Shown here: piece by piece, positions 11,106 to 58,414 of the stretch
Layout of the letters: the number at the start of each line of letters is the position of its first letter
How positions within the stretch are numbered: position 1 is the stretch's first letter
Source of the DNA: an uncultured Bacteroidota bacterium
GTDB taxonomy: Bacteria; Bacteroidota; Bacteroidia; Bacteroidales; GCA-2748055
NCBI GenBank assembly: GCA_963713725.1
Contig: CAVQMZ010000017.1
Span: forward strand, 37,242 to 101,241
DNA length: 64,000 nt
Reading direction: 5' to 3'
Notes under the pieces: generated by a model
Seen by the model: only the letters and a program-made list of their open reading frames with translations
Databases searched by the model: none
Told to the model about the DNA's origin: nothing
Position numbers and translations under genes: made by a program

Positions 11106-11233
11106 AATGGATCTATTTGTATAGACTTCACCCTTTTGTATAGCCAAGCCAGGGGCACATCACATTTCAGACTGGAACTTTTACTTGTTTGATGCGGCAC
11201 TTTTACCTATCTTTATTCAACACCATATTTGTC

Positions 11234-11665
11234 ATGGCTAAAAACCAGGAAAAATACAGCTCGGAAGCCCTGGAGGTGCCAGGCCAATTATCTGAAAGCG
11301 AAGTTCTTTACTGGCTTCGCAACAAAAATATCGATTACTCCTTTCTGAATCTTCTGAAAGCGAATTCCTTGATGCCCGATGAAGTTTTAGCCGGATGGCT
11401 GAATATCAGTGTGAAGACCCTTAGAAACTACAGAAACCCGGAAAACAAAATCCGGGATAATATCAAAGAGCAAATTCTCCTTCTGATTGCCTTATACAGG
11501 CACGGTAATGATATTTTTGGTGACGAAGGCCGATTTAATCTCTGGCTGAATACTGAAAATTTCTTTTTCGATGAAGCAGCCCCGGCCACAATGCTTAATA
11601 CAATCTCTGGCATCAGGTTCGTCGATAACAGGCTGAGCGCCATGGCATACGGAGACAATGTATAA
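11234..11665 (+). CDS. Xre/MbcA/ParS-type antitoxin (DUF2384 toxin-binding domain)
   Basis: ORF 11189-11665; the likely start is MAKNQEKY at 11234. The C-terminal segment ...FNLWLNTENFFFDEAAPATMLNTISGIRFVDNRLSAMAYG fits DUF2384. It overlaps the RES gene by 8 nt. Confidence 0.75.
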   Translation: MAKNQEKYSSEALEVPGQLSESEVLYWLRNKNIDYSFLNLLKANSLMPDEVLAGWLNISVKTLRNYRNPENKIRDNIKEQILLLIALYRHGNDIFGDEGRFNLWLNTENFFFDEAAPATMLNTISGIRFVDNRLSAMAYGDNV

Positions 11666-12125
11666 TATGGAGGTTTTCAGAATTTCCAGGGCTTGTTTTG
11701 CACGGAAGCTTCAGGCATCCGGATATGCCAATCGATGGAACATGGATGGCCAGATGGTAATCTATGCAGCTCCATCCAGAGCCCTGGCAACTCTCGAACT
11801 GCTGGTTAATCGCAGTAACATTAAACCTGATGAGGACTATCTGATGATGGTCATTTCTCTTTCTGTTTCCGAAGATGATATTCAGGAAATAAGATTGGGA
11901 AACCTGCCTGAACACTGGCAATCATTATCAGCTTACACCCTTCTTCAAAAACAAGGATCAGCATGGTATAAAAACCAGGAATCCCTGGTTCTAAGGCTAC
12001 CATCTGCCGTGATTCCGCAGGAACATAATTATATGATTAATACCAAACATCCCGATTTTGCTGATAAAGTTTCACTGATCCGGAAAGAAGCGTATTTTTG
12101 GGATCAAAGACTCCATAAAGAATGA
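11658..12125 (+). CDS. RES-domain toxin (NAD+-targeting MbcT/ParT-like family)
   Basis: 155 aa with R (ANRWN), E (TLELLV) and S (LPSAVIP) in the spacing of RES domains. It is translationally coupled to the upstream antitoxin. Confidence 0.8.
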   Translation: MYNMEVFRISRACFARKLQASGYANRWNMDGQMVIYAAPSRALATLELLVNRSNIKPDEDYLMMVISLSVSEDDIQEIRLGNLPEHWQSLSAYTLLQKQGSAWYKNQESLVLRLPSAVIPQEHNYMINTKHPDFADKVSLIRKEAYFWDQRLHKE

Positions 12126-13153
12126 CAGATAAACACTGGGAACAACTCAAGGCCATTGTAAATGGTGAAACCCTCACTCCCGCCCCCATGGGCTTCATCA
12201 TCGATTCACCCTGGCTACCCAACTGGTATGGTATTTCCCTGCTGGACTATTTTACCAGTGATGAGCTCTGGCTGAAAGCCAACCTGAAAGCCGAAGAGAC
12301 CTTCCCCGACCTCATGTTCCTGCCCGGCTTCTGGTCCGAATACGGAATGTGCACTGAGCCTTCAGCCTTCGGAGCCCGCAGCTCCTTCCCCTTCAACGAG
12401 TTTCCCCATGCTTTTCCCTGCATCGAAGCTCCGGAGCAAATCAAGAACCTTCCCCAGGCCAATCCGGAGAAAGACGGCCTTGGCCCCATGGTACTGAACC
12501 GCATCAAACTGAATGAAAAGAAAATCAACGATGCAGGACACCAGATCCGTTTTTCTGTTTCCCGGGGCCCCCTGAATATTGCATCCTTTCTTATGGGGAC
12601 CACCGAGTTTATGATGGCCATGATCACCCACCCCGACGAAACCCACATGCTCATACGGAAAATCACCGACTACCTGAAAGGTTTCCACGACCGGCAGGCG
12701 GAGCTTTTCCCATCCACCGAAGGCATTATGATGCTCGACGACATTATCGGCTTTATCTCGGCCGATCAGTTTGAGGAGTTTGGCCTCCCCTACTTCAAAG
12801 AGCTCTACGACAGGGACCTTCCCGTAAAATTCCTGCACAACGATGCACCCTGCATGGAATCCGCCCCCTATCTGCCCGCCATGGGGGTGAACCTCTTTAA
12901 CATGGGCTTTGATACCGACCTCAACGAGCTAAAAAAGATCACAGAAAACAAAGTCACCATGCTTGGGAACATCCCACCCAGGGATGTGCTGGCACGCGGA
13001 ACTGAAGAAGAAATCAAGGCCTCTGTCCACGAACTGAAAACCCGGCTGGAAGATCCCTCCAGGGTAATCCTGTCCTGTGGCGGTGGCATGCCACCCGATG
13101 TCACCACTGCCCAGATTAATGCCTTCATCCAGGCCGTCAAATCCCACAACTAA
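12122..13153 (+). CDS. uroporphyrinogen decarboxylase (URO-D)-like family protein
   Basis: 343-aa ORF. The overall pattern resembles URO-D/MtaA-like TIM-barrel proteins (e.g. ...SCGGGMPPDV near the C-terminus). The start overlaps the stop of the RES gene. Confidence 0.65.
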   Translation: MTDKHWEQLKAIVNGETLTPAPMGFIIDSPWLPNWYGISLLDYFTSDELWLKANLKAEETFPDLMFLPGFWSEYGMCTEPSAFGARSSFPFNEFPHAFPCIEAPEQIKNLPQANPEKDGLGPMVLNRIKLNEKKINDAGHQIRFSVSRGPLNIASFLMGTTEFMMAMITHPDETHMLIRKITDYLKGFHDRQAELFPSTEGIMMLDDIIGFISADQFEEFGLPYFKELYDRDLPVKFLHNDAPCMESAPYLPAMGVNLFNMGFDTDLNELKKITENKVTMLGNIPPRDVLARGTEEEIKASVHELKTRLEDPSRVILSCGGGMPPDVTTAQINAFIQAVKSHN

Positions 13154-13298
13154 GCCCCTAACTACTAACCATTAACCACTAACTACTAACCTACTAACCC
13201 ACTAACTGCTAACCCACTAACCCACTAACCACTAACCCATTAACCCACTAACCACTAACTACTAACCTAATAACCCACTAACTGCTAACCCATTAACC
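13154..13298 (+). repeat. G-depleted (C/A)YTAACC tandem-repeat spacer, copy 1
   Basis: The whole 145-nt intergenic region is made of ACTAACC/ATTAACC/CCACTAAC units. It has only 3 G and ends directly at ATG 13299. Confidence 0.95.
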
Positions 13299-14270
13299 AT
13301 GAAACCAATATCCAGCCTGCCAATTTTTATTATAAGTCTTGCTCTAATGACTGCCTGTGCCCCAAAACCCCCATCACCCACCCTGCTTGTTGATGATACA
13401 TCCACCACCATCGCAATGGGTGAAAACCTGCTGCTTACCTATGTTCATGCCGAGACACCGGCGCCCGAGGGTACCAATCCCCTCTATAAACGTTCAGCCT
13501 ACATCCACCCTTTGCGTTCCCCAGGCGGTGAGATCCTGACCACCATTCAGCCTCCCGATCACATCCACCACTACGGAATCTGGAATCCCTGGACCCATAC
13601 CAATTTTGGAGGCGACAGCGTGGATTTCTGGAACCTGGCGCTGGGACAGGGAACTGTGAGATTTAAGGAATACCTGGAGGTAACTGAAAACGAGGGTGTG
13701 GCCGGTTTCCTGGTGGGACATGATCATATTTACTTCCCGGAAGAAGGTGGCGAGAAAGTTGCCATTAAAGAGACCTGGGATATAAAAGTTCACAATCTGA
13801 GTGATTCTTCCTACATCGCTGACCTTACGGTTGACCTTACTAATGTCCTGGACATGGACATTGAGCTGGAGGCATACCGCTACGGGGGCGGACTGGGTTA
13901 CAGGGCCACCGAAAGGTGGGATCCCGGTAATGCAACTGTGCTGACCTCAGAAGGAAAAAATTGGTCAGAGGCTGACGGTACCGGTGCCCGCTGGGTAAGA
14001 GTTGAGGGCGAATCGTCGGTTCCGCAGGGTCGCTCCGGCATCCTCTTCCTGAGTCACCCCGAAAACCGCTCCCACCCTGAGCCCATGCGCATGTGGCCTC
14101 CAATTTCCAACGAAGGAAAAGCCAATGTGTTTTTTGAATTCTGCCCCATCAGGCACCAGGCGTGGATCCTGGAGCCAGGGAAGATGTACACCCTGAAATA
14201 TCGCATGGTGGTCTTTGACGGCAGCCTGGATGCTGAAAGCGCCGAAATACACTGGAAAAATTTCCAATAA
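13299..14270 (+). CDS. DUF6807/PmoA-family protein (lipoprotein)
   Basis: 323 aa with lipobox LMTAC. The segment YIHPLRSPGGEILT...PDHIHHYGIWNPWTHT...DFWN is characteristic of the PmoA-like DUF6807 family that commonly accompanies Gfo/Idh/MocA oxidoreductases. Confidence 0.7.
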   Translation: MKPISSLPIFIISLALMTACAPKPPSPTLLVDDTSTTIAMGENLLLTYVHAETPAPEGTNPLYKRSAYIHPLRSPGGEILTTIQPPDHIHHYGIWNPWTHTNFGGDSVDFWNLALGQGTVRFKEYLEVTENEGVAGFLVGHDHIYFPEEGGEKVAIKETWDIKVHNLSDSSYIADLTVDLTNVLDMDIELEAYRYGGGLGYRATERWDPGNATVLTSEGKNWSEADGTGARWVRVEGESSVPQGRSGILFLSHPENRSHPEPMRMWPPISNEGKANVFFEFCPIRHQAWILEPGKMYTLKYRMVVFDGSLDAESAEIHWKNFQ

Positions 14271-14399
14271 TCCCTATCTTAGAACCCACTAACCCACTAA
14301 CCCAACTAACCCACTAACCCAATAACCCATTAACCCACTAACCCATTAACCCACTAACCCAATAACCCATTAACCCATTAACCCACTAACCCTTCATCC
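14271..14399 (+). repeat. G-depleted (C/A)YTAACC tandem-repeat spacer, copy 2
   Basis: 129-nt intergenic region with repeats CCACTAAC/CCATTAAC/CCAATAAC from about 14284. It contains a single G (14282). Confidence 0.95.
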
Positions 14400-15779
14400 A
14401 TGCAAAGACGATCCTTCATAAAAAAAGCCACGGCAGGCACGGCAGGCGCCATTTTAGTTCCCACCATCATACCTTCACATGTACTGGGTAAGACTGCTCC
14501 AAGCAACAGGATACAGGTTGCGCAGATTGGCTTCGGGCGCATTGCCATGACCCACGATCTGCCCGAGACCCTGAAAAACCAGTATGCCATGGGAGTGGCT
14601 GTGGCTGATGTGGACATCAACCGTGCCCATAAGGGGAAAAAATGGATCGAGGACTATTATGCCGGGCAGACTGGCAGGAAGGACTACGCTGATATAAAGG
14701 TTTACCAGGATTACAGGGAGATGTTAGAGGATAAAAACATCGATGCGGTGATTGTTTCCACACCCGATCACTGGCATGCCAAACCTGCCATAGATGCAGC
14801 GCTTGCCGGCAAGGATATCTACCTTCAAAAGCCAGCTTCCCTTACCATTGAAGAAGGCCGGCAAATGAGTGATACCGTAAATCGTACAGGTGTGATTTTC
14901 CAGCAGGGAAGCCAGCAGAGAGGCGGCCAACCCTGGCCCCAGTTTCACAGGGCCTGTGAGCTGGTTCGAAACGGACGGGTCGGGGAATTGACCAGGATTG
15001 AAATCGGGCTACCTGGCGACCCTTCGGGTGATGAGGAACTGATTATGCCTGTTCCCGAAAACCTGAATTACGACATGTGGCTGGGATCCACTCCAAACGT
15101 ATACTATACTGAAAAACGGGTACACCCCCAGGACAGTATTACCAACCGACCAGGCTGGCTGCGTTGTGAGCAGTTTGGTGCCGGCATGATCACCGGCTGG
15201 GGTGCCCACCACCTGGATACTGCCCACTGGGGTATGGGAACCGAGTACACCGGCCCGGTCGAGGTGGAAGCAGAAGCCACCTTCCCCACTTCCGGTCTGT
15301 GGGATGTCCATGGCGATTTCCATGTCTGGGCTAAGTATGCCAACGGGGTAAATATGGAAGTCAGCGGAGCCTTCCCCAACGGTGTGAAATTCATTGGAAC
15401 GGAAGGCTGGATTTTTGTCTCCCGCGGCAACGTGAAGGTAACCTCCACCGATCCGGGCCAGGCAGATGCAGAATTGAAGGCCCTGGATGCCAGCGACCCA
15501 AAAATTCTGAAGTCGGAGATCGGACCCGATGAAATCCACCTCTACAAGGCACCCGAGCAGCACGATGACTGGATAAATGCCATCCGCTCCCGAAAAGATC
15601 CGGTGGCTCCCGCCGAAGTGGGACACCGGTCCTGCTCAGCCTGCCTGGTGAGTCACATCGCCATGAAAGTTCCAGGGAAACTATACTGGGATCCACTGAA
15701 GGAAAGGTTTAAGGATAATGACCTTGCAAACTCCATGCTGGGCAGGCCCCAGCGCGCCCCCTATGGCACAAACTACTAA
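14400..15779 (+). CDS. Gfo/Idh/MocA family oxidoreductase with twin-arginine signal
   Basis: 459 aa. It has MQRRSFIKKATAGTAGA (TAT signal), the IQVAQIGFGRIA Rossmann start and the STPDHWHA motif. Confidence 0.9.
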   Translation: MQRRSFIKKATAGTAGAILVPTIIPSHVLGKTAPSNRIQVAQIGFGRIAMTHDLPETLKNQYAMGVAVADVDINRAHKGKKWIEDYYAGQTGRKDYADIKVYQDYREMLEDKNIDAVIVSTPDHWHAKPAIDAALAGKDIYLQKPASLTIEEGRQMSDTVNRTGVIFQQGSQQRGGQPWPQFHRACELVRNGRVGELTRIEIGLPGDPSGDEELIMPVPENLNYDMWLGSTPNVYYTEKRVHPQDSITNRPGWLRCEQFGAGMITGWGAHHLDTAHWGMGTEYTGPVEVEAEATFPTSGLWDVHGDFHVWAKYANGVNMEVSGAFPNGVKFIGTEGWIFVSRGNVKVTSTDPGQADAELKALDASDPKILKSEIGPDEIHLYKAPEQHDDWINAIRSRKDPVAPAEVGHRSCSACLVSHIAMKVPGKLYWDPLKERFKDNDLANSMLGRPQRAPYGTNY

Positions 15780-15969
15780 CCCCTAACCTATTAACCCCTA
15801 ACCTACTAACCCCTAACCCCTAACCTACTAACCCCTAACCTATCTAACCCCTAACCTACTAACCCCTAACCACTAACCCCTAACCCCTAACCCCTAACCT
15901 ATTAACCCCTAACCCTACTAACCCCTAACCCATTAACCCATTAACCCATTAACCTATCAATCCATTCTA
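15780..15969 (+). repeat. G-free CCCCTAAC/CTACTAAC tandem-repeat spacer, copy 3
   Basis: 190 nt between stop 15777-15779 and ATG 15970 with no G at all. It includes three perfect CCCCTAA units at 15877-15897. Confidence 0.95.
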
Positions 15970-17368
15970 ATGAAATTCATACCACTTTTTGCAATAGCGG
16001 CCCTCCTGTCCATGTTATTCTCATGTAAGCCCGCCACACAACAAAGCTCAGAAACCATGTTTACTCCCCTGGTAGCAAAAGTAAAATTCATGAACCTGGA
16101 TCCGGGTCACTTTCACGCGGCCCTGGTGCAGAAAACCATGTATGAAAGTGTCGACCCGACCGTTTATGTCTATGCCCCGGAAGGACCCGAGGTGGAGAGT
16201 TACCTGAACCTGATTGAACGCTATAATTCCCGGGAGGAGAATCCCACTGCCTGGGAGGAAAAAGTGTACAGGGGGGATGATTTCTTTCAAAAGATGATTG
16301 AAGATAAACCGGGTAATGTTATGGTGGTCTCGGGGAATAATGCAAAAAAGACCGAATACATCCTGGAAGCCGTCAGCTCGGGCCTGCACGTCCTGTCTGA
16401 CAAACCCATGGTTATCACTCCCGAAGAATTCCCCATGCTGGAGGAGGCTTTTGCCATTGCTCAGGAAAATGGCGTTCTCCTTTACGACATCATGACCGAG
16501 CGCTACGAGTTTACCACCATGATGCAAAAGGCCTTTTCCCAAATTGAAGGGATTTTTGGCAGCTCTTGAGAAGGGCACACCTGAAAATCCGGCCATCACC
16601 AAGGAAAGTGTGCACCACTTCTCCAAGATCGTATCCGGAAACTGGTTGATTCGTCCACCCTGGTTTTTTGATACAGAACAACAGGGTGAAGGCATTGTGG
16701 ATGTAAACACCCACCTGGTTGACCTGGTACAATGGGAGGCTTTCCCGGATGTCACCCTTGAGAAAGCTGATGTGGAAATTATCTCGGCAAGGCGGTGGAC
16801 CACCGACCTCACTCCGGCCATGTTTGAGAAGGTCACCGGACAGAAGACTTACCCGGACTACCTGCAGAAGGATGTGGATGGTGAGCTGCTGAAGGTTTAC
16901 GCCAACGGGGAAATCAACTACGCCCTGAAGGGTGTGCACGCAAAAGTATCGGTAATCTGGAACTTCCAGGCGCCTGAAGGTTCGGCTGACACGCACTTCT
17001 CACTTATGCGGGGAAGTAAATGTAATCTGGTCATCCGGCAGGGAGAAGCCCAGGGCTACAAGCCCATGCTCTATATTGAGCCGGTGGAAGGGACAGACCT
17101 GGAGGTTTTTGAAAGCGATGTCAAAAAAGCAACAGAAGAAAAAATCGCCTCCCTTTATCCGGGTGTTCAGGTGAAAAAAGCGGATGAAGGAAGCTGGGTT
17201 CTGGATGTCCCAGCCAAATATAAAGTCGGGCATGAGGCCCATTTCGGCCAGGTCACCGAAAAATACCTGGGCTGGCTGGGCCAGGGTATGCTTCCCGAAT
17301 GGGAAATCCCCAATATGATCGTGAAGTATTACACCACCACGGAAGGGATGAAGAAGGCCATGGAATAG
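15970..17368 (+). pseudogene. putative oxidoreductase (Bacteroidota 'oxidoreductase C-terminal domain' family), one frameshift near 16545-16569 (or an indel error)
   Basis: ORFs 15970-16569 and 16544-17368 overlap in different frames. Joined, they read as one lipoprotein (lipobox LFSC; ...LDPGHFHAALVQK...TPENPAITKESVHHF...). Confidence 0.65.
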
Positions 17369-17377
17369 GCCAATCTT

Positions 17378-18505
17378 TTATTTGCTGTACAGTTTAAACA
17401 CCTCGGCACCGGCGCTCAAGAATGCCCCGGTGCCATAAACTTCTGTCTTGTCGGGCCATGCCTTTCCGGGGGCGGCCCCGATGGGCTGTACATAACCCAG
17501 CATGCCTTCCTCTGTGATGCAGGCTGTCATGGCATTCCAGCCCTTTCGTACAGCCGGTTCATAAGTAGCATAATCCAGGATGCCCTGGTTCACCCCATAG
17601 GCAAGTCCAAAGGTAAAGAAGGAGGAACCACTGCTCTCGGGGGTGGGGTAAAACTCCTGTCCCAGCAGGCTCATGGCCCAGTGACCCTCAGGGGTCTGGA
17701 TCTCCAGGAGTTTTTTCGACATCTTTTTGTAAATCCCCAGGAAGTATTTGTACTCCTTGCTTCCGGGATCAAGCTCCATCAGGATATTGGCCAGACCGGC
17801 ATAGACCCAGCCGTTTCCCCGGGCCCAGAATATTTTTGTCCCATTATCCAGCTTGCCCATATAGCTTTCGTCCCGGTAGTAAAGGGATTCTTTTTTATCG
17901 AAAAGAAAATCGGTCGTTGCCTTATACTCCGACACCATAAAGTCCAGGTAGACCTGCTCGCCGGTAATCCTGGCCAGTTTGGCCCAGACCGGGGGAGACA
18001 TAAACAGGGCATCGCACCAATTCCAGCGGTCCTGGTGGAAGGGACTCTTCCATTGCATCGTGCTCTGTGAAGGGTGGTACCTGATAAAATCAAATTGTTC
18101 CCTGGTGGGCGTTATCATGGCCTTTTCCCCGTACTTCCTGTAGAGCTCCAGGTACATCTGACCCACCGTATGATCATCGGCATGGTATTGCCTGCGGTGT
18201 AATACCCATTGGTTTTCCTCACCGATGGACTTCAGCCACTCGTAATATTTTTCGTCACCTGCCATGGCAGCCCACTTGACCATCCCCACATACAATGCCC
18301 CATTGGTCCAGTCCAGGGGGTGGTGGGTCTCTTTCCCGGTAAAGGGCAGCATCTTGTCAAAATTTTCTATCTGCCAGTCCGCCACACGCTTCATGTCACG
18401 CTTCACTTCCTGGGGTTGAATATCCCGGGGCGAAATGTCCTGAGCGCAGAGGGAACTGAAAGAAATGAGCATTAAAATAAGCACGGAAAAAATGTGTCTG
18501 TACAT
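17378..18505 (-). CDS. glycoside hydrolase family 88/105 (unsaturated glucuronyl/rhamnogalacturonyl hydrolase-like)
   Basis: 375 aa with signal peptide and motifs DWTNGALY, WCDALFM and FWARGNGW. Confidence 0.8.
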   Translation of the reverse strand: MYRHIFSVLILMLISFSSLCAQDISPRDIQPQEVKRDMKRVADWQIENFDKMLPFTGKETHHPLDWTNGALYVGMVKWAAMAGDEKYYEWLKSIGEENQWVLHRRQYHADDHTVGQMYLELYRKYGEKAMITPTREQFDFIRYHPSQSTMQWKSPFHQDRWNWCDALFMSPPVWAKLARITGEQVYLDFMVSEYKATTDFLFDKKESLYYRDESYMGKLDNGTKIFWARGNGWVYAGLANILMELDPGSKEYKYFLGIYKKMSKKLLEIQTPEGHWAMSLLGQEFYPTPESSGSSFFTFGLAYGVNQGILDYATYEPAVRKGWNAMTACITEEGMLGYVQPIGAAPGKAWPDKTEVYGTGAFLSAGAEVFKLYSK

Positions 18506-29402: not shown

Positions 29403-29464
29403 ATCTCTCTCTTTTGACTTTATGGATTTTACAGACTTTACTCAGCTTCGCTTTCGACTTATGG
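29403..29464 (-). repeat. TAAAGTC-type octamer repeat spacer
   Basis: In gene sense: TAA-CCATAAGTCGAAAGCGAAGCTGAGTAAAGTCTGTAAAATCCATAAAGTCAAAAGAGAGAGAT-ATG. It fills the whole intergenic gap. Confidence 0.8.
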
Positions 29465-34313: not shown

Positions 34314-35862
34314 CTATCGTGTGATTACTGCATCCTCAGGACAAACCTGCCTGCAGCCATCACATTTAATACATAGTTCATTATCCACCACATGCTTTTC
34401 ATGGGGCTTAAAGGCAATGGCATCCACCGGGCAATCCTGGGCACAGAGGGTGCAGCCTATACAATCGTCGGTAATTTCATATTTAATCAGATCCTTGCAC
34501 TTTCCGGCCGGACATTCGCCCCGGATGTGGGCTTCATACTCATCCCGGAAATAATTCAGGGTGGAGAGAATGGGATTGGGAGCAGTACCACATAGTGCAC
34601 AAAGACTTCCCGTTTTGGTCCAGTGTGCCAGCTCCTCCAGCTTTTCCAGGTCCGTTTCACTTCCCTTTCCTGTGGTAATCTTCTCAAGGATCTCCAGCAT
34701 TCTTTTGGTACCAATGCGTCCAAAACTGCATTTTCCGCAGGCTTCATTCTGGGTAAAGGTGAGAAAGTAGCGGGCAATATCCACCATGCAGTCCTTATCG
34801 TCCAGTACCACCAGTCCGCCCGAACCCATCATGGCTCCCACCTCCTTGAGAGACTCAAAATCAATGGGGGTATCTGCCTTCCATGCGGGCACACATCCAC
34901 CCGAAGGTCCACCAATCTGAACAGCCTTAAATTCCCTGCCATCGGCCACTCCTCCTCCAATTTCCTCAACAACCTCACGGATTGTCATTCCCATGGGCAC
35001 CTCAATGAGTCCGCCCCGGGCAACCTTCCCGGCCAGGGCAAAAACTTTTGTTCCCCTGGATGATTCTGTTCCAATACTGTTAAAGGATGCGGCCTTGTTT
35101 TTCAGGATGTAGGCAATCTGGGCAAAGGTCTCCGTATTATTCACCAGCGTAGGCTGTCCCCACAATCCTTTCACCGCAGGAAAGGGTGGACGGATCCTGG
35201 GAAAGCCTCTTTTCCCTTCAATGGATTCGATCAAGGCGGTTTCCTCCCCACAGACAAAGGCACCGGCTCCCTGGTAGACAGTCAAGATCAAAATCAAATC
35301 CCGTCCCCAGAATATCCTTCCCAAGATATCCCTGTTCACGACATACCACAAGGGCCTGCTGAATTCGGGTAACCGCCAGCGGGTATTCGGCACGTATGTA
35401 CAGAATCCCTTCTGCTGCCCCCACAGCATAGCCTGCAGCAATAAGGCCTTCGATGATCCGGTAGGGATATGATTCCAGTAACATGCGATCCATAAATGCG
35501 CCCGGATCGCCCTCATCGCCATTGCAAATAATATATTTTTTCTCACTGCCGGCATCGGCCACCATCTGCCATTTCTTTCCTGTGGGAAATCCGCCTCCAC
35601 CCCTGCCCCGAATGCCACTTTCGATAATCTCATCAATCACCTCCTGGGGAGTCATTTTCTTCAGCACCCTTTGCAGGCCTCTGAATCCATTGCGCTGTTT
35701 ATACTCCTCAACATCCACGGGATTAATCACACCCCTGAATTCGGTGGCCATGGGAATCTGCTTATCCAGGAAAAGGGAGACATGCTTTTCCCTCACATCA
35801 AGCGAATAACGATCCACTCCATCCCAACGGCTGTCGTCCCGAACAGAATTGGCCATACTCAT
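34314..35862 (-). pseudogene. NuoF-like NADH-binding flavoprotein subunit with two C-terminal [4Fe-4S] motifs (HydB/HndC type), one frameshift near 35275-35290
   Basis: ORF 35218-35862 carries GIRGRGGGGFPTGKKW and CNGDEGDPGAF. ORF 34314-35636 carries GAFVCGEETALIESIEG, the CGKC region, CIGCTLCAQDCP and CIKCDGCRQVCP. The junction is ...GTGFDFDL/VYQGAGAFVCGEE. Confidence 0.8.
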
Positions 35863-36658
35863 CAGGCGATCTGCTTAAACGCCTTATCAGGCCGTCGGGC
35901 TGGAAATGCCGTTCCACAATCTGATCCACATCGGCAGCATCCACTTTTGAATAAAGGGTGGGCTCCCCATGGGTAGGAACAATCTCCACCAGGGGAACCT
36001 GGTGACACATGCCCACACAACCCACATGTTTAAGTTTTACATTCAATCCCTTGCGGTCAATGGTATCTTTTACGGAATCGCGGATTTCATCACTTCCGCT
36101 GGCCACACAACATGAACCCAGCCCGATTCGAATCTCGCCCTTTACTTCACCACCGCCGGCATACTTGTATTTTTTCTTTTTTGAGCCACCCTCCTGGCTC
36201 TGAAAATCGGACAGAACCGAGGTCACCTTGGAAGTACTTACATGACCATAGGTCACCTCATCGATTTGCACCACGGGTGCCAGGGTACAGCAGCCCAGGC
36301 AGTTTACCTTTTCAATGGTATATTCACCGGATGGAGTGGTATCCTCCGATACTGCCAGACCAAGTTCGCGTTTCATGGCATCGTAAACCTGCTCGGCTCC
36401 CTTCACGTGACAGGCTGTTCCCACGCAAACTTTGATCATATGCTTTCCCGCCGGCTTAAAGCGGAACTGGGAATAAAAACTGGCCACACCCACAATCTGT
36501 GCTGGTGTAATCTCCGTGAGCTCGCAGACCCTTCTCAATGCCTCCTCGGGAAGATAATTATAACGTCCCTGTATGGCCTGAAGAATGGGAATCACCGCAT
36601 GCGGCTCCTTCCCCAGCTCCTCCACAATCCCATCTATATCTCTTATCTCAATCTCCAT
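35798..36658 (-). CDS. NuoE-like [2Fe-2S] subunit with a second thioredoxin-like [2Fe-2S] domain
   Basis: 286 aa with CVGTACHVKG...CLGCCTLAP (NuoE fold) and a second GLGSCCVASG...CVGMCHQVP domain. The last ~20 codons overlap the NuoF-like start by 65 nt and may themselves be frame-shifted. Confidence 0.8.
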   Translation of the reverse strand: MEIEIRDIDGIVEELGKEPHAVIPILQAIQGRYNYLPEEALRRVCELTEITPAQIVGVASFYSQFRFKPAGKHMIKVCVGTACHVKGAEQVYDAMKRELGLAVSEDTTPSGEYTIEKVNCLGCCTLAPVVQIDEVTYGHVSTSKVTSVLSDFQSQEGGSKKKKYKYAGGGEVKGEIRIGLGSCCVASGSDEIRDSVKDTIDRKGLNVKLKHVGCVGMCHQVPLVEIVPTHGEPTLYSKVDAADVDQIVERHFQPDGLIRRLSRSPDEYGQFCSGRQPLGWSGSLFA

Positions 36659-36800: not shown

Positions 36801-38702
36801 TTAACCGCTCGCTTCGCGAGCTATTTTTCCAATACAGTATAGATTTTTTGTCCCTCTCAAATAGATCACCCCATCTGCAAAGGCAGGAAGCGCAAAACCC
36901 TGCTCTCCAAGTTCGGGTTCGGCAATGATTGTTCCGCTGGCATCGGCCTTCATAATATGACATATACCCTCCTTGTCCATGATATATAGCTTACCCTCTG
37001 CAATGACAGGAGAAGACCAGATTTCATTGTCAAACTCCTTTTCCCATTTTTTCTCTCCGGTTTTGGCATCATAGCACACCACCACTCCAAAACTGGTGGC
37101 CATGTACATTAAACCCTGGTGAGCAACCGGACTGCCCACTTCTGACATGTACTCATCATCTTCCCACACATACTCCCCCACTGATTTTGGGTCAATGGCC
37201 AGGGTCCGCGCATACTCCTGAGAAGCAAAAACCAGACCATCGGAGAAGGCTATGGACGGTCCCACTTCTCCCATCATGGCCTCAACTTTCCATAATTCCG
37301 CCCCGGTAGCCAGATCATGACCCGACACATAAGGATCAGCCGATGTGACAATCTGTATTTTTCCATCCACTTCGATGAGCGCGGGGGAAGCCCATGAAAT
37401 ATGAACCGGCCTTTCCACGTCCCATACCGTTTCACCGTTTGCCGTATTCAGGGCCAGCATACGCCCCTTTGTATTGGTATCATACTGAACTACAACTTTA
37501 TGATCCCACACCTGAAGTGAAGAGGAATGGCCATAATGGTTGTTGGGCACACCCAGGTTTCGTCCCCATATCTTCTTTCCGTCCAAAGTGAAGGCCACTA
37601 TATCACCATTGGCGAAAATGGCATAAACAGCCTTTCCGTCCACAGCCATGGTGGCAGCAGCAAGACCGGTATCCTCGGTAACCCTGGGCATGGTGGCAGG
37701 TGATCCCGGTATATCTTTCACTTCTTTTTCCCAAAGGAGCTGTCCCGTATTCCGGTCATAGCAGGCAACTACCAGTCCGTCCTTATCTCCTCCGGAAATA
37801 AAAATCCTGCTGCCCCAGATTACTGGTGAATTATACCCGGGCTTGGAAAATGCCACCTTCCACTTTACTTTCTGACCCGATGGACCATCCCATTCCACAG
37901 GAATATTCTTATGAAATGAAACACCCAGCCCCATATAACCCCTGAAAGTGGCATGGTTAAGCTTAAAATCATTCCGGTTGAAAGCTCCGCCTGAAGCCGC
38001 ACTGGCTATGGAGTTTTTCTCCTGAACTGTTTCAACGCCCGCAGACGAAGGTGCCGGGCTGACTTCCTGCTCAGTGACGGCCCCATCCGGCACAGCTTCG
38101 GATGAAGACTCAGCGAGGCCTTCCTCCGGGGCTCCAACTTCACCTGCGGCCTGGTTCTCACCAAAAACATCCACCACCTCCACATCACTTACTTCCCCGA
38201 CTGAAACAGCAGATTCAGCCATCTGGTCATATTCCTTGAGAAAATCGTTGGTTAAAACACCCGCTACAAGCGAAAGACCAAGGATGAGCCCTCCGGCCAG
38301 GAAGAGCCAGTACTGGGCATTTGCCCTTGCCTTAAGAAGCCCTTCTGTAAGTTCTTCCGGAGCTTCGATGCCCGCTCTTAAATCGGTATAGAATTTCATG
38401 GAAACAGCCAGTACAATACCACCGATGAGCAGGAGCCAGGTACCTGTCTTTACCTGCCAGCGGCTGGTGAAATAGGCCTTTCTTGCCAGCAAATCAAAGC
38501 TTCGGATTTCCTCCTTGAGCTCCTCATTGTTTGGCTCCTGTGACAGGCGCTTAACCAGGGCCTCTATGGCCTGACTTTCCAGTGGCTCGGTCTGCTTCAT
38601 ATGCCAGAAATTCAGAATCAGAAGCAAGGCCACCACTCCGCAAAATATACCGGAAATGAGCATTGCCCTGTGTGCCACTTTTATTTTATTTTCTTTATCC
38701 AT
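36801..38702 (-). CDS. membrane-anchored PQQ-like beta-propeller repeat protein
   Basis: 633 aa. It has three N-terminal TM helices, an acidic A/E/V/S-rich linker, then a propeller with repeated ...G.LWE/W.. blades (DGKAVYA, DGKIQIV, EGKLYIM). Confidence 0.75.
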   Translation of the reverse strand: MDKENKIKVAHRAMLISGIFCGVVALLLILNFWHMKQTEPLESQAIEALVKRLSQEPNNEELKEEIRSFDLLARKAYFTSRWQVKTGTWLLLIGGIVLAVSMKFYTDLRAGIEAPEELTEGLLKARANAQYWLFLAGGLILGLSLVAGVLTNDFLKEYDQMAESAVSVGEVSDVEVVDVFGENQAAGEVGAPEEGLAESSSEAVPDGAVTEQEVSPAPSSAGVETVQEKNSIASAASGGAFNRNDFKLNHATFRGYMGLGVSFHKNIPVEWDGPSGQKVKWKVAFSKPGYNSPVIWGSRIFISGGDKDGLVVACYDRNTGQLLWEKEVKDIPGSPATMPRVTEDTGLAAATMAVDGKAVYAIFANGDIVAFTLDGKKIWGRNLGVPNNHYGHSSSLQVWDHKVVVQYDTNTKGRMLALNTANGETVWDVERPVHISWASPALIEVDGKIQIVTSADPYVSGHDLATGAELWKVEAMMGEVGPSIAFSDGLVFASQEYARTLAIDPKSVGEYVWEDDEYMSEVGSPVAHQGLMYMATSFGVVVCYDAKTGEKKWEKEFDNEIWSSPVIAEGKLYIMDKEGICHIMKADASGTIIAEPELGEQGFALPAFADGVIYLRGTKNLYCIGKIAREASG

Positions 38703-38745
38703 TTTCTCTTTCTTTCAGACTTTACGACTTTATGACTTTACAGAC
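38703..38745 (-). repeat. TAAAGTC octamer repeat spacer (cleanest copy)
   Basis: In gene sense: TAA-TCGTTAAGTCTGTAAAGTCATAAAGTCGTAAAGTCTGAAAGAAAGAGAAA-ATG. TAA occurs in all three frames. Confidence 0.9.
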
Positions 38746-38955
38746 TTAACGATTAACCGGGCTTGCCCGGTCCACCGGGCAGTAATCCATACACCTTCCG
38801 CAGGAAAAACAATTTGCTTTGTGGGGTTCATAATCCTCCCTGCTCCGGAATACCACCTGGTTCATAAGGGTAATTCCCAGCACAAGGCCAATGAATCCAC
38901 CCAGGACCCAACCTCCCTTTTTAAATTTCGTTCTGATTACAGCGGCCTGCTCCAC
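38746..38955 (-). CDS. TM helix + [4Fe-4S] motif fragment; probably the C-terminal part of the NapH-like protein
   Basis: 69 aa with no ATG (GTG only) and CFSCGRCMDYCP. Its frame stays open upstream to 13 nt from the NapH-like stop. Deleting one C near 39027-39030 fuses them (...LMISPAELRDDETNLDIQAF...). Confidence 0.5.
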   Translation of the reverse strand: MEQAAVIRTKFKKGGWVLGGFIGLVLGITLMNQVVFRSREDYEPHKANCFSCGRCMDYCPVDRASPVNR

Positions 38956-57450: not shown

Positions 57451-57505
57451 GGTTTCGACTTTATAGACAGACTTTAAGCTTTATGGACTTTTGGCTTTAC
57501 CGACT
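57451..57505 (-). repeat. TAAAGTC-type octamer repeat spacer
   Basis: In gene sense: TAA-AGTCGGTAAAGCCAAAAGTCCATAAAGCTTAAAGTCTGTCTATAAAGTCGAAACC-ATG. Confidence 0.85.
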
Positions 57506-58414
57506 TTAAGGCCAGAGGGACTCTGGATAAACACCATTATCCACAAGATCCCTGATCGCCTTTAGTACTTTGGGCTTGTCGTCCTGGTAGGTAACACCAA
57601 ACCAGGAAGAGGGCGTTTGCAGAACCGACATCTTTGCAAGGCCGGCATTGATAAGCTCGTCCACTGCAAGGGGAATGAAAAATTCGGCTTTGGGATCATT
57701 GATGTTCTCCTTAATGAAATCCTCAAAAATATCCCCGGCCTTTTTGAAAAAATCGGCGGTGAAGCCAAAAAGATTCATGGATACTGTATCCAGGGCATCC
57801 AGCGGATGAATTGAACCATCTGCATCCTCATAAACTATTTTGCCATCCTCCAGGAAAATTTTCGTGCGTTCGACCATTCCTTCCAGAAAACCATCTTCAT
57901 CCACCTGGCATACTCCACGGGCCACTGAACCATGTTCAGAAACCGTTTTCTGAAGCTGGAATCCAACCATGCAGTAACGACCGGGTTCATCCGGCGTGCT
58001 TTCAGCAAGGAAGTTTTGCATAATCTGGTATGATTCCCTGCCGTAATAGTCATCTGCATTGATTACAGCAAAAGGCCCGTTTATGGCATCCTTTGCCATC
58101 AGTACCGCATGCGCTGTTCCCCAGGGCTTAACCCGGTCGGCTGGTAAACTCATTCCTTCCGGAATGTTATCAATGGACTGGATCACATAATCCACCTTAA
58201 TGTGGGAAGGAAATTTTTTGATATAGTTTGCTTTAAAATCATCCTCCATTTTTGGAGAGATCACAAATACAAAACGATCGAAGCCTGCACGGTGGGCATC
58301 ATAAATGGAATAGTCGGTAATGGTCTCACCAGAAGGGCCAAAGGGATCAACCTGTTTCATTCCGCCATATCGGCTTCCCATCCCTGCAGCTAAAATTAAA
58401 AGCGTTGTATTCAT
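57506..58414 (-). CDS. sugar-phosphate nucleotidyltransferase family protein
   Basis: 302 aa with the N-terminal LILAAGMGSRYGGMKQ motif (G-x-G-t-R type) of NTP-transferases. Confidence 0.75.
   Translation of the reverse strand: MNTTLLILAAGMGSRYGGMKQVDPFGPSGETITDYSIYDAHRAGFDRFVFVISPKMEDDFKANYIKKFPSHIKVDYVIQSIDNIPEGMSLPADRVKPWGTAHAVLMAKDAINGPFAVINADDYYGRESYQIMQNFLAESTPDEPGRYCMVGFQLQKTVSEHGSVARGVCQVDEDGFLEGMVERTKIFLEDGKIVYEDADGSIHPLDALDTVSMNLFGFTADFFKKAGDIFEDFIKENINDPKAEFFIPLAVDELINAGLAKMSVLQTPSSWFGVTYQDDKPKVLKAIRDLVDNGVYPESLWP

Follow-up and report, generated by a model that had tools for sequence, protein, structure and literature searches.

The stretch of 64,000 nt analysed in this study (the window in the following; contig CAVQMZ010000017.1 of an uncultured member of the Bacteroidales) contains a four-gene operon on the plus strand, the three intergenic gaps of which are filled with tandem arrays of a nearly G-free unit of 7-9 nt with a TAAC core. 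The arrays in these spacers (S1 to S3), a fourth array located elsewhere in the window (S4) and their counterparts in related bacteria and in metagenomes are described here. Coordinates, gene boundaries, spacer lengths (145, 129 and 190 nt) and composition had been given in an original prediction and were reproduced; gene 4 is split by a frameshift in the assembly. The operon comprises the following features:

12093-12100, plus strand: promoter-like motif TATTTTTG, a match to TAnnTTTG that lies about 22 nt before the ATG of gene 1
12122-13153, plus strand: gene 1, URO-D-like, 343 aa (Pfam PF01208, E = 1.5e-32)
13154-13298, plus strand: spacer S1, 145 nt (A55 C58 G3 T29), 18 full TAACYNN(N) units, the array abutting the next ATG
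13299-14270, plus strand: gene 2, DUF6807/PmoA-like lipoprotein, 323 aa (Pfam PF14100, E = 7e-65), with a lipoprotein-type N-terminus
14271-14399, plus strand: spacer S2, 129 nt with 1 G, a degenerate edge TCCCTATCTTAGAACCCAC followed by 12 full TAACCCAY units and then CCTTCATCC
14400-15779, plus strand: gene 3, Gfo/Idh/MocA oxidoreductase with a twin-arginine signal, 459 aa (Pfam PF01408 and PF19051; N-terminus MQRRSFIKK)
15780-15969, plus strand: spacer S3, 190 nt with 0 G, 22 full units, mainly TAACCCC alternating with TAACCTAC as a 15-nt higher-order repeat
15970-17368, plus strand: gene 4, oxidoreductase (Pfam GFO_IDH_MocA and Oxidoreduct_C), frameshift-split near 16526-16570

The units of S1-S3 follow the pattern TAACC(C/T)(A/C)(C/T), with the consensus CCAYTAAC (equal to TAACC[C]AY), and full units of 7-9 nt were counted by cutting at each TAAC. 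Tandem Repeats Finder reported the arrays at 13149-13299, 14283-14392 and 15773-15956, with periods of 7-8 nt and 13-23 copies. The pattern YTAACCNNYTAAC has 29 matches in the window, all of them on the plus strand, while 0.04 are predicted from shuffled sequences. The earlier G counts of 3, 1 and 0 for S1, S2 and S3 were borne out by a recount, and this scarcity is highly improbable at the G frequency of the window (binomial, 2e-12, 4e-13 and 3e-21, respectively).

The arrays leave little of the gaps uncovered. The S1 array sets in 5 nt after the upstream stop codon and runs directly up to the next ATG (0 nt). S2 starts about 12-19 nt after the stop codon and ends 9 nt before the ATG. In S3 the distance to the upstream stop codon is 0 nt, the stop codon TAA of gene 3 doubling as part of the first unit, and 16 nt remain to the next ATG. 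The sense strand of S1-S3 is free of ATG, GTG and TTG, and each sense and antisense frame holds at least three stop codons, so that all six frames are closed and the spacers are non-coding, as had been proposed.

The expectation that such a leader could hardly fold also holds, since the predicted minimum free energy of the sense RNA of S1-S3 is 0 to -0.2 kcal/mol; the complementary strand shows weak predicted folding (-17 to -19 kcal/mol). The sense RNA contains 40-45% C, 0-2% G and 24-57 YC dimers. On the minus (template) strand of S2, 14 G3 tracts follow one another, separated by loops of 5 nt and spanning 108 nt in all; S3 carries 6 G3 tracts within 42 nt on this strand, and a motif scan found no G3-type quadruplex motif in S1 or S4. 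A conventional promoter, a terminator hairpin and a Shine-Dalgarno (SD) sequence had been predicted to be missing from the spacers. Scans for them remained empty: neither a sigma-70-like promoter nor a terminator hairpin was detected in the arrays, and neither a purine-rich SD sequence nor a TAnnTTTG motif within S1-S3. No Rfam family matched the window at gathering thresholds, and none matched the region 13100-16050 at E <= 1.

TAnnTTTG is the motif that we take to be the Bacteroidetes -7 promoter consensus. Near the operon its only plus-strand match is at 12093-12100, the next one following at 17831, and the motif context AAGAAGCGTATTTTTGG upstream of the URO-D gene is conserved in the relatives L121, L122, L251 and L252 (see below). 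The match is likely the single promoter of the four-gene unit. As this lone motif lies upstream and the arrays contain neither promoter nor terminator, genes 1-4 look like one transcription unit, and we infer that the arrays lie inside its mRNA. The start codons of the three downstream genes are credible, because signal peptides open all three proteins (lipoprotein-type MKPISSLPIFIISLALMTAC and MKFIPLFAIAALLSMLFSC and the twin-arginine sequence of gene 3). The upstream regions of the genes in the window are A-rich and show no SD peak, with an SD-like tetramer in 11 of 59. TAACC as a general start-codon context of this genome was rejected, given these A-rich leaders. Directly upstream of the operon, at 11189-12125, an Xre-like/RES-domain toxin-antitoxin pair was found, the RES gene of which overlaps the URO-D start (ATGA) and includes the motif at 12093-12100; the arrangement in L252 is alike.

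A fourth array, which the original prediction had missed, lies between two genes of the minus strand:

35798-36658, minus strand: NuoE-like gene (Pfam), flanking S4, which touches its start codon
36659-36800, C-rich strand on the plus strand: array S4, 18 units with 2 G
36801-38702, minus strand: PQQ_2 beta-propeller gene (Pfam), flanking S4

Since both flanking genes are encoded on the minus strand, it is the G-rich GGTTAG strand of S4 that would appear in their mRNA. In the relative L259, whose NuoE protein is 90% identical, this array is likewise present and equally oriented; L260 lacks it. All four arrays are located between open reading frames (ORFs), and Tandem Repeats Finder detected no other sizeable tandem repeats of period 7-8 in the 64 kb. 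An origin as a mobile element was rejected, as the four arrays have no common flanks. In all four cases the C-rich strand is on the plus strand, and the GC skew of the window is negative (C > G on the plus strand) in nearly every 4-kb bin, regardless of gene orientation. The hypothesis that array orientation follows the replication strand, as read from GC skew, was rejected on the counts in the fetched loci (33/33 and 29/25).

A second, shorter repeat family consists of (T/A)AAGTC-type 8-mers in 3-5 copies, located at 38715-38752, 29416-29441 and 57455-57510. These repeats precede genes of the minus strand, being located in their 5' leaders or upstream regions, e.g., GTAAAGTCATAAAGTCGTAAAGTC about 20 nt before the ATG of the beta-propeller gene.

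Orthologous operons were collected by way of DUF6807 homologs and their contigs, and the same gene cluster was found in uncultured Bacteroidales. The amino acid identity of the DUF6807 protein and the lengths of the spacers S1/S2/S3 are as follows:

Window: 100%, 145/129/190 nt
L256: 84%, 163/at least 89/? nt, short-read assembly with a contig that stops in S2
L122: 85%, 24/46/23 nt, with 3, 4 and about 1 units
L121: 76%, 57/88/120 nt, every array of CCAYTAAC
L251: 71%, 88/34/98 nt, 17-nt higher-order variants, G included
L252: 71%, 129/17/18 nt, S1 with a 23-nt higher-order variant
L258: 70%, 44 nt (remnants)/S2 gap split by an inserted sulfatase gene/78 nt, S3 being a CTAACCCTA array
L253: 65%, 466/-/- nt, the spacer closing with (AATAACC)x3 before the ATG and the Gfo gene not following DUF6807
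L254: 68%, S1 of 5 nt and the other gaps altered by gene insertions, no arrays

The alignment of orthologs, which had been suggested as a check, thus yielded arrays that keep to the same gaps and the same orientation in most relatives (65-85% protein identity). Unit number at orthologous gaps ranges from about 1 to 24, L254 being devoid of arrays, and unit number, unit variant and higher-order period all differ between them. This strong variation agrees with the earlier suggestion of a slippage-prone tract. As the coding DNA of these relatives is merely 74-80% identical to that of the window, the arrays turn over while keeping their position, and the comparison indicates that this turnover is probably driven by slippage.

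The strain of L122 is represented by nine short-read assemblies (L122-L130, Logan), in which S1 is constant at 24 nt. In eight of the nine, contigs end inside the 46-nt S2, after 3 or 4 CTAACCA units, which suggests that the assembly graph branches at the repeat. The pattern fits length heterogeneity or a multi-copy repeat, proving neither. In L258 (5308-6804) and L254 (10966-12000 and 13459-14403), genes encoding a sulfatase, a CN_hydrolase and a Lactamase_B protein are inserted exactly at those gaps that bear arrays in the window, and in L258 the edge motif TATCTTA has been retained with the downstream Gfo leader.

The distribution of the unit beyond these operons was analyzed in two scans, for which genes were called crudely as the longest ORFs, a bias that is symmetrical for both orientations. 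Representative genomes were scanned for YTAACCNN x3.5, which gave at least 120 loci in many phyla, and metagenomes were scanned for the lineage unit CCAYTAAC x3; all survey figures given here and below hold among the matches listed. The YTAACCNN loci are mostly short, perfect 8-mer microsatellites, and among the matches listed they show neither an orientation bias relative to genes nor a positional rule. In viral contigs, two composition-matched shuffled 8-mer cores occur at 60 and 119 loci versus 37 for TAACC, so that the TAACC core is not special at large. A TAACC element spanning the phyla was therefore rejected: the loci are generic 8-mer microsatellites without a pattern of orientation or position, and shuffled controls are equally common or commoner in viral contigs. 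Within the 250 loci fetched in the two TAACC-pattern scans, Tandem Repeats Finder identified 270 TAAC-core arrays and 206 arrays of other units, mostly of 7-8 nt. The latter indicate a general mutational process, in agreement with the published predominance of heptamer-class repeats among long simple-sequence repeats of bacteria.

The arrays of the lineage unit itself follow an orientation rule. Among the matches listed, 49 of 71 CCAYTAAC arrays are located in co-directional, 15 in divergent and 7 in convergent gaps, which is about what we expect for bacterial intergenic gaps, and the proposed enrichment in co-directional gaps was not found. The co-directional arrays comprise 34 in sense and 15 in antisense orientation; counting one per locus, the ratio is 33:12 (p = 0.0025). 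Sense arrays have a median distance of 15 nt to the start codon they face and lie within 15 nt of it in 25 of 49 cases, whereas the median for antisense arrays is 112 nt, with 3 of 30 lying within 15 nt (Fisher p = 2e-4, Mann-Whitney p = 2e-5). Sense and antisense arrays in this sample are no different in their distance to stop codons. The ATG starts at the array junctions look genuine, and the loci are SD-poor, SD-like motifs being present in 15%.

Accordingly, one part of the leader idea stands, as the mRNA strand of the metagenome matches listed is preferentially the G-less one, which then lies next to start codons, but a G-less leader is not a requirement. As a universal feature the G-less leader fails: S4 and its ortholog in L259 are antisense to their genes and nevertheless touch a start codon, and in L154 each of three consecutive gaps of a minus-strand cluster is occupied by an antisense array. 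TAACC arrays paired head to head, as inverted repeats, were observed in L154 (5060-5176), L203 (7648-7821) and L237 (8207-8352); in contrast to the direct arrays of the window, such pairs could fold into long, imperfect hairpins. Furthermore, telomere-like heptamer arrays (AAACCCT / CCCTAAA) share contigs with CCAYTAAC arrays in L131, L149, L153, L195, L236 and L237.

The original prediction had known of no described bacterial element of this structure. The arrays do belong to a published class, the intergenic heptamer/octamer repeats or long simple-sequence repeats (LSSR) (PMC4679880; PMC4692102). What is newly described here is the TAACC(C)AY unit in operon gaps of uncultured Bacteroidales, the kind itself being already described. 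A literature search found no description of this unit or of this Bacteroidales lineage; a search by literal unit strings returned just primers and unrelated eukaryotic sequences, and a search for TAACTGA returned MacGregor 2015 as the sole bacterial repeat paper.

The closest counterparts are the TAACTGA heptamer direct repeats of marine Beggiatoaceae, Cyanobacteria and five Bacteroidetes (MacGregor 2015, PMC4679880). These are intergenic, mostly forward and located a few nt from SD-less start codons, they reach up to 43 copies in Bacteroidetes, and they differ between strains by indels in unit steps (PMC4679880). They contain stop codons in the forward frames and have no predicted RNA structure; translational roles have only been proposed, as has recognition by an RNA- or single-stranded DNA-binding protein, with S1, Csp or CsrA-like candidates (PMC4679880). 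The window arrays are likewise tandem repeats of the 7-nt class with a TAAC core, intergenic, free of structure and closed by forward stops, and S1-S3 are forward and lie 0, 9 and 16 nt before an SD-less ATG, with the reverse S4 as an exception. They differ in the unit TAACC(C)AY, in mixed periods of 7, 8 and 9 nt and in being almost G-free. TAACTGA is absent from them, although a few TAACTGC and TAACTAC units occur, and with 12-22 units they are longer and take up entire gaps within the operon.

In Xanthomonas and Nostoc, GGGAATC / GGGGA(C/T)T heptamer repeats lie between aligned ORFs (Rehm et al. 2015, PMC4692102). Their non-coding strand is the G-rich one, and an ORF begins within 50 bp downstream; their position is conserved, their length varies extensively, and they are transcribed, with an unresolved role (PMC4692102). 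The window arrays resemble them in strand asymmetry, with the C-rich strand in the mRNA, in lying between aligned ORFs and in the position kept in relatives, and the CCAYTAAC arrays among the matches listed give the same positional asymmetry. Unit and phylum are different, the four-unit preference is missing (12-22 full units in the window), and the G3 quadruplex motif is present in S2 and part of S3 alone.

Heptanucleotide units were the commonest class of LSSR in Mrazek, Guo and Shah 2007, who blamed polymerase slippage, and units of 5-11 nt were found to be non-coding and sporadic across phyla, as far as this work is summarized in PMC4679880. The window arrays share the characteristics of LSSR, i.e., head-to-tail units of at most 11 nt beyond chance, non-coding location, a unit length that is not a multiple of three and a copy number that varies among relatives. 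LSSR are a general class, and the window unit and its host lineage are not among the described ones. Cyanobacterial STRR heptamers were reportedly described by Mazel et al. in 1990. The mycobacterial interspersed repetitive units (MIRU), said to have been reported from operon gaps by Supply et al. in 1997, are similar in that the window arrays, too, are variable-number tandem repeats filling intercistronic gaps along the direction of transcription. MIRU units differ from the window arrays (7-9 nt, frames closed) in having 40-100 bp and a small ORF overlapping the flanking stop and start codons. A palindrome of the REP/BIME type was rejected, because the sense RNA forms no stable hairpin (0 to -0.2 kcal/mol). 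A phase-variable contingency repeat was rejected as well, since the arrays lie between a stop and the next start codon and no promoter motif flanks them within the operon.

Taken together, we favour, with moderate confidence, the explanation that the arrays are a slippage-driven, lineage-specific LSSR that is transcribed within the operon, largely neutral and filtered by what start regions tolerate. The arrays would arise and vary by replication slippage or unequal recombination, and they would be transcribed within one polycistronic mRNA from the putative promoter upstream of URO-D. They may persist because the unit is harmless in place, with closed frames and without a start codon, fold, promoter or terminator. 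Selection would act chiefly as a filter, by which the G-less strand is tolerated up to the start codon in SD-poor genomes with open leaders and the G-rich complement is kept about 100 nt from start codons. Each downstream cistron would then begin after 130-190 nt of naked, open RNA free of start codons. The copy number could shift the relative output of the four genes, and a dedicated recognition factor would not be required.

Several points weigh against this explanation. Slippage alone leaves it unexplained that one unit family occupies three to four gaps and many further loci, and 130-190 nt of supposedly neutral DNA survive in compact operons despite a coding divergence of 20-25%. A positive function, rather than a filter, could lie behind the preference for the sense orientation and the closeness to start codons. 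In addition, the gene calls of the surveys are crude, being longest ORFs, and the metagenome sample consists of the matches listed (at least 120), which carry no taxonomic label. The recurrence of the unit at several gaps and the retention of long arrays in a compact genome leave room for a positive role.

The foremost positive role would be that of a selected translation element, which offers ribosomes a landing or standby pad, or a runway on which they travel after termination to the first AUG, for initiation independent of an SD sequence. The number of units would then set the translation ratio of adjacent cistrons. This is a tentative possibility. It agrees with an unfolded sense RNA (0 kcal/mol) that lacks ATG, GTG and TTG in S1-S3, with sense arrays that abut the ATG (25 of 49 within 15 nt) while antisense arrays avoid it, with the sense:antisense ratio of 33:12 among the matches listed in SD-poor genomes, and with gaps that have retained their arrays although the coding DNA has diverged by 20-25%. 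A similar idea has been put forward for the TAACTGA repeats (PMC4679880), and Nostoc heptamer repeats near recF and recO altered reporter expression (bioRxiv 10.1101/2022.06.06.494920). However, near relatives manage with 1-4 units or none (L122, S2 and S3 of L252, L254), long antisense arrays exist in S4, L259 and L154, S4 even touching a start codon, and ordinary leaders in the window are A-rich rather than C-rich, so that TAACC is no general start context. A tolerance filter accounts equally for all these observations. Rather doubtful is the stronger form, according to which CCAYTAAC arrays are a selected, orientation-specific translation device of SD-less Bacteroidota, with a runway that captures free or just-terminated ribosomes and with unit slippage as a heritable dial of stoichiometry.

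The composition of the sense RNA also recalls Rho utilization. In Escherichia coli, the rut sites of Rho are C-rich and G-poor; their RNA is unstructured over at least about 80 nt and contains YC dimers at intervals. This compositional definition is matched by the sense RNA of S1-S3 (40-45% C, 0-2% G, 129-190 nt, 24-57 YC dimers, unstructured), although rut sites are not tandem repeats. As loading sites for Rho or entry sites for an endoribonuclease, the arrays would create a graded polarity, in which the distal genes need translation that keeps pace. We consider this unlikely, since about a quarter to a third of the co-directional arrays are antisense (S4, L154 and among the matches listed); these cannot be rut sites, because they are G-rich in the mRNA. 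Moreover, three strong rut sites in one operon would be costly.

A series of binding sites for a sequence-specific RNA- or single-stranded DNA-binding protein, forming a dispersed post-transcriptional regulon, would explain why a single unit family has been amplified at several loci of the lineage and why the position of arrays relative to start codons depends on their orientation, and such binding was proposed earlier for the TAACTGA repeats (PMC4679880). Against it, the units drift freely (CCAYTAAC, CCCCTAAC, CCTACTAAC and the 17- and 23-nt higher-order variants), the copy number is unconstrained and the downstream genes have no common function, which makes this role improbable.

An effect at the DNA level, with G-quadruplexes on the G-rich template strand and i-motifs on the C-rich strand modulating transcription or replication, is suggested by the predicted motifs in S2 (14 consecutive G3 tracts) and S3 (6 tracts) and by a placement like that of the GGGAATC repeats of Xanthomonas and Nostoc, for which such a mode of action has been proposed (PMC4692102). 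With the G3 motif missing from S1 and S4, many units containing CC or a single C only (TAACCAC, TAACTAC) and no preference for four units, it is very improbable.

Finally, an assembly artefact is barely conceivable: at least two frameshifts of the window relative to intact homologs suggest an error-prone consensus, but arrays at the same gaps are present in independent assemblies from different samples and technologies (L121, L252 and L259 from ENA; L122-L130 and L256 from Logan), isolate genomes also hold arrays, and the arrays are thus real. One of these frameshifts is the frame switch in gene 4 relative to its intact 466-aa ortholog in L121 (tblastn). A second one, at about 35873, splits the NuoE/NuoF-like gene relative to the 454-aa protein P0122. 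Both are probably indel errors in the consensus of the assembly, possibly pseudogenes, and because of them the exact unit counts of the window hold just as assembled.

For decades, intergenic repeats of heptamers and octamers have been known from Cyanobacteria, Xanthomonas, Beggiatoaceae and some Bacteroidetes, and their function is still undemonstrated. The locus described here offers a natural series, in which one conserved four-gene operon carries one repeat family in three gaps, with unit numbers per gap that range from 0 to about 24 among its relatives. To this the survey adds the orientation rule that, in SD-poor genomes, arrays lie next to start codons when the mRNA strand is the G-less one and keep away from them when it is the G-rich one. 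This rule makes the function of the repeats testable with regard to SD-independent initiation, Rho loading and operon stoichiometry in Bacteroidota. Should the arrays be merely tolerated products of slippage, they still break short-read assemblies and mark hypervariable sites for strain typing. If they do act as a translation device, this would be the first defined mechanism for the widespread heptamer and octamer repeats of bacteria.

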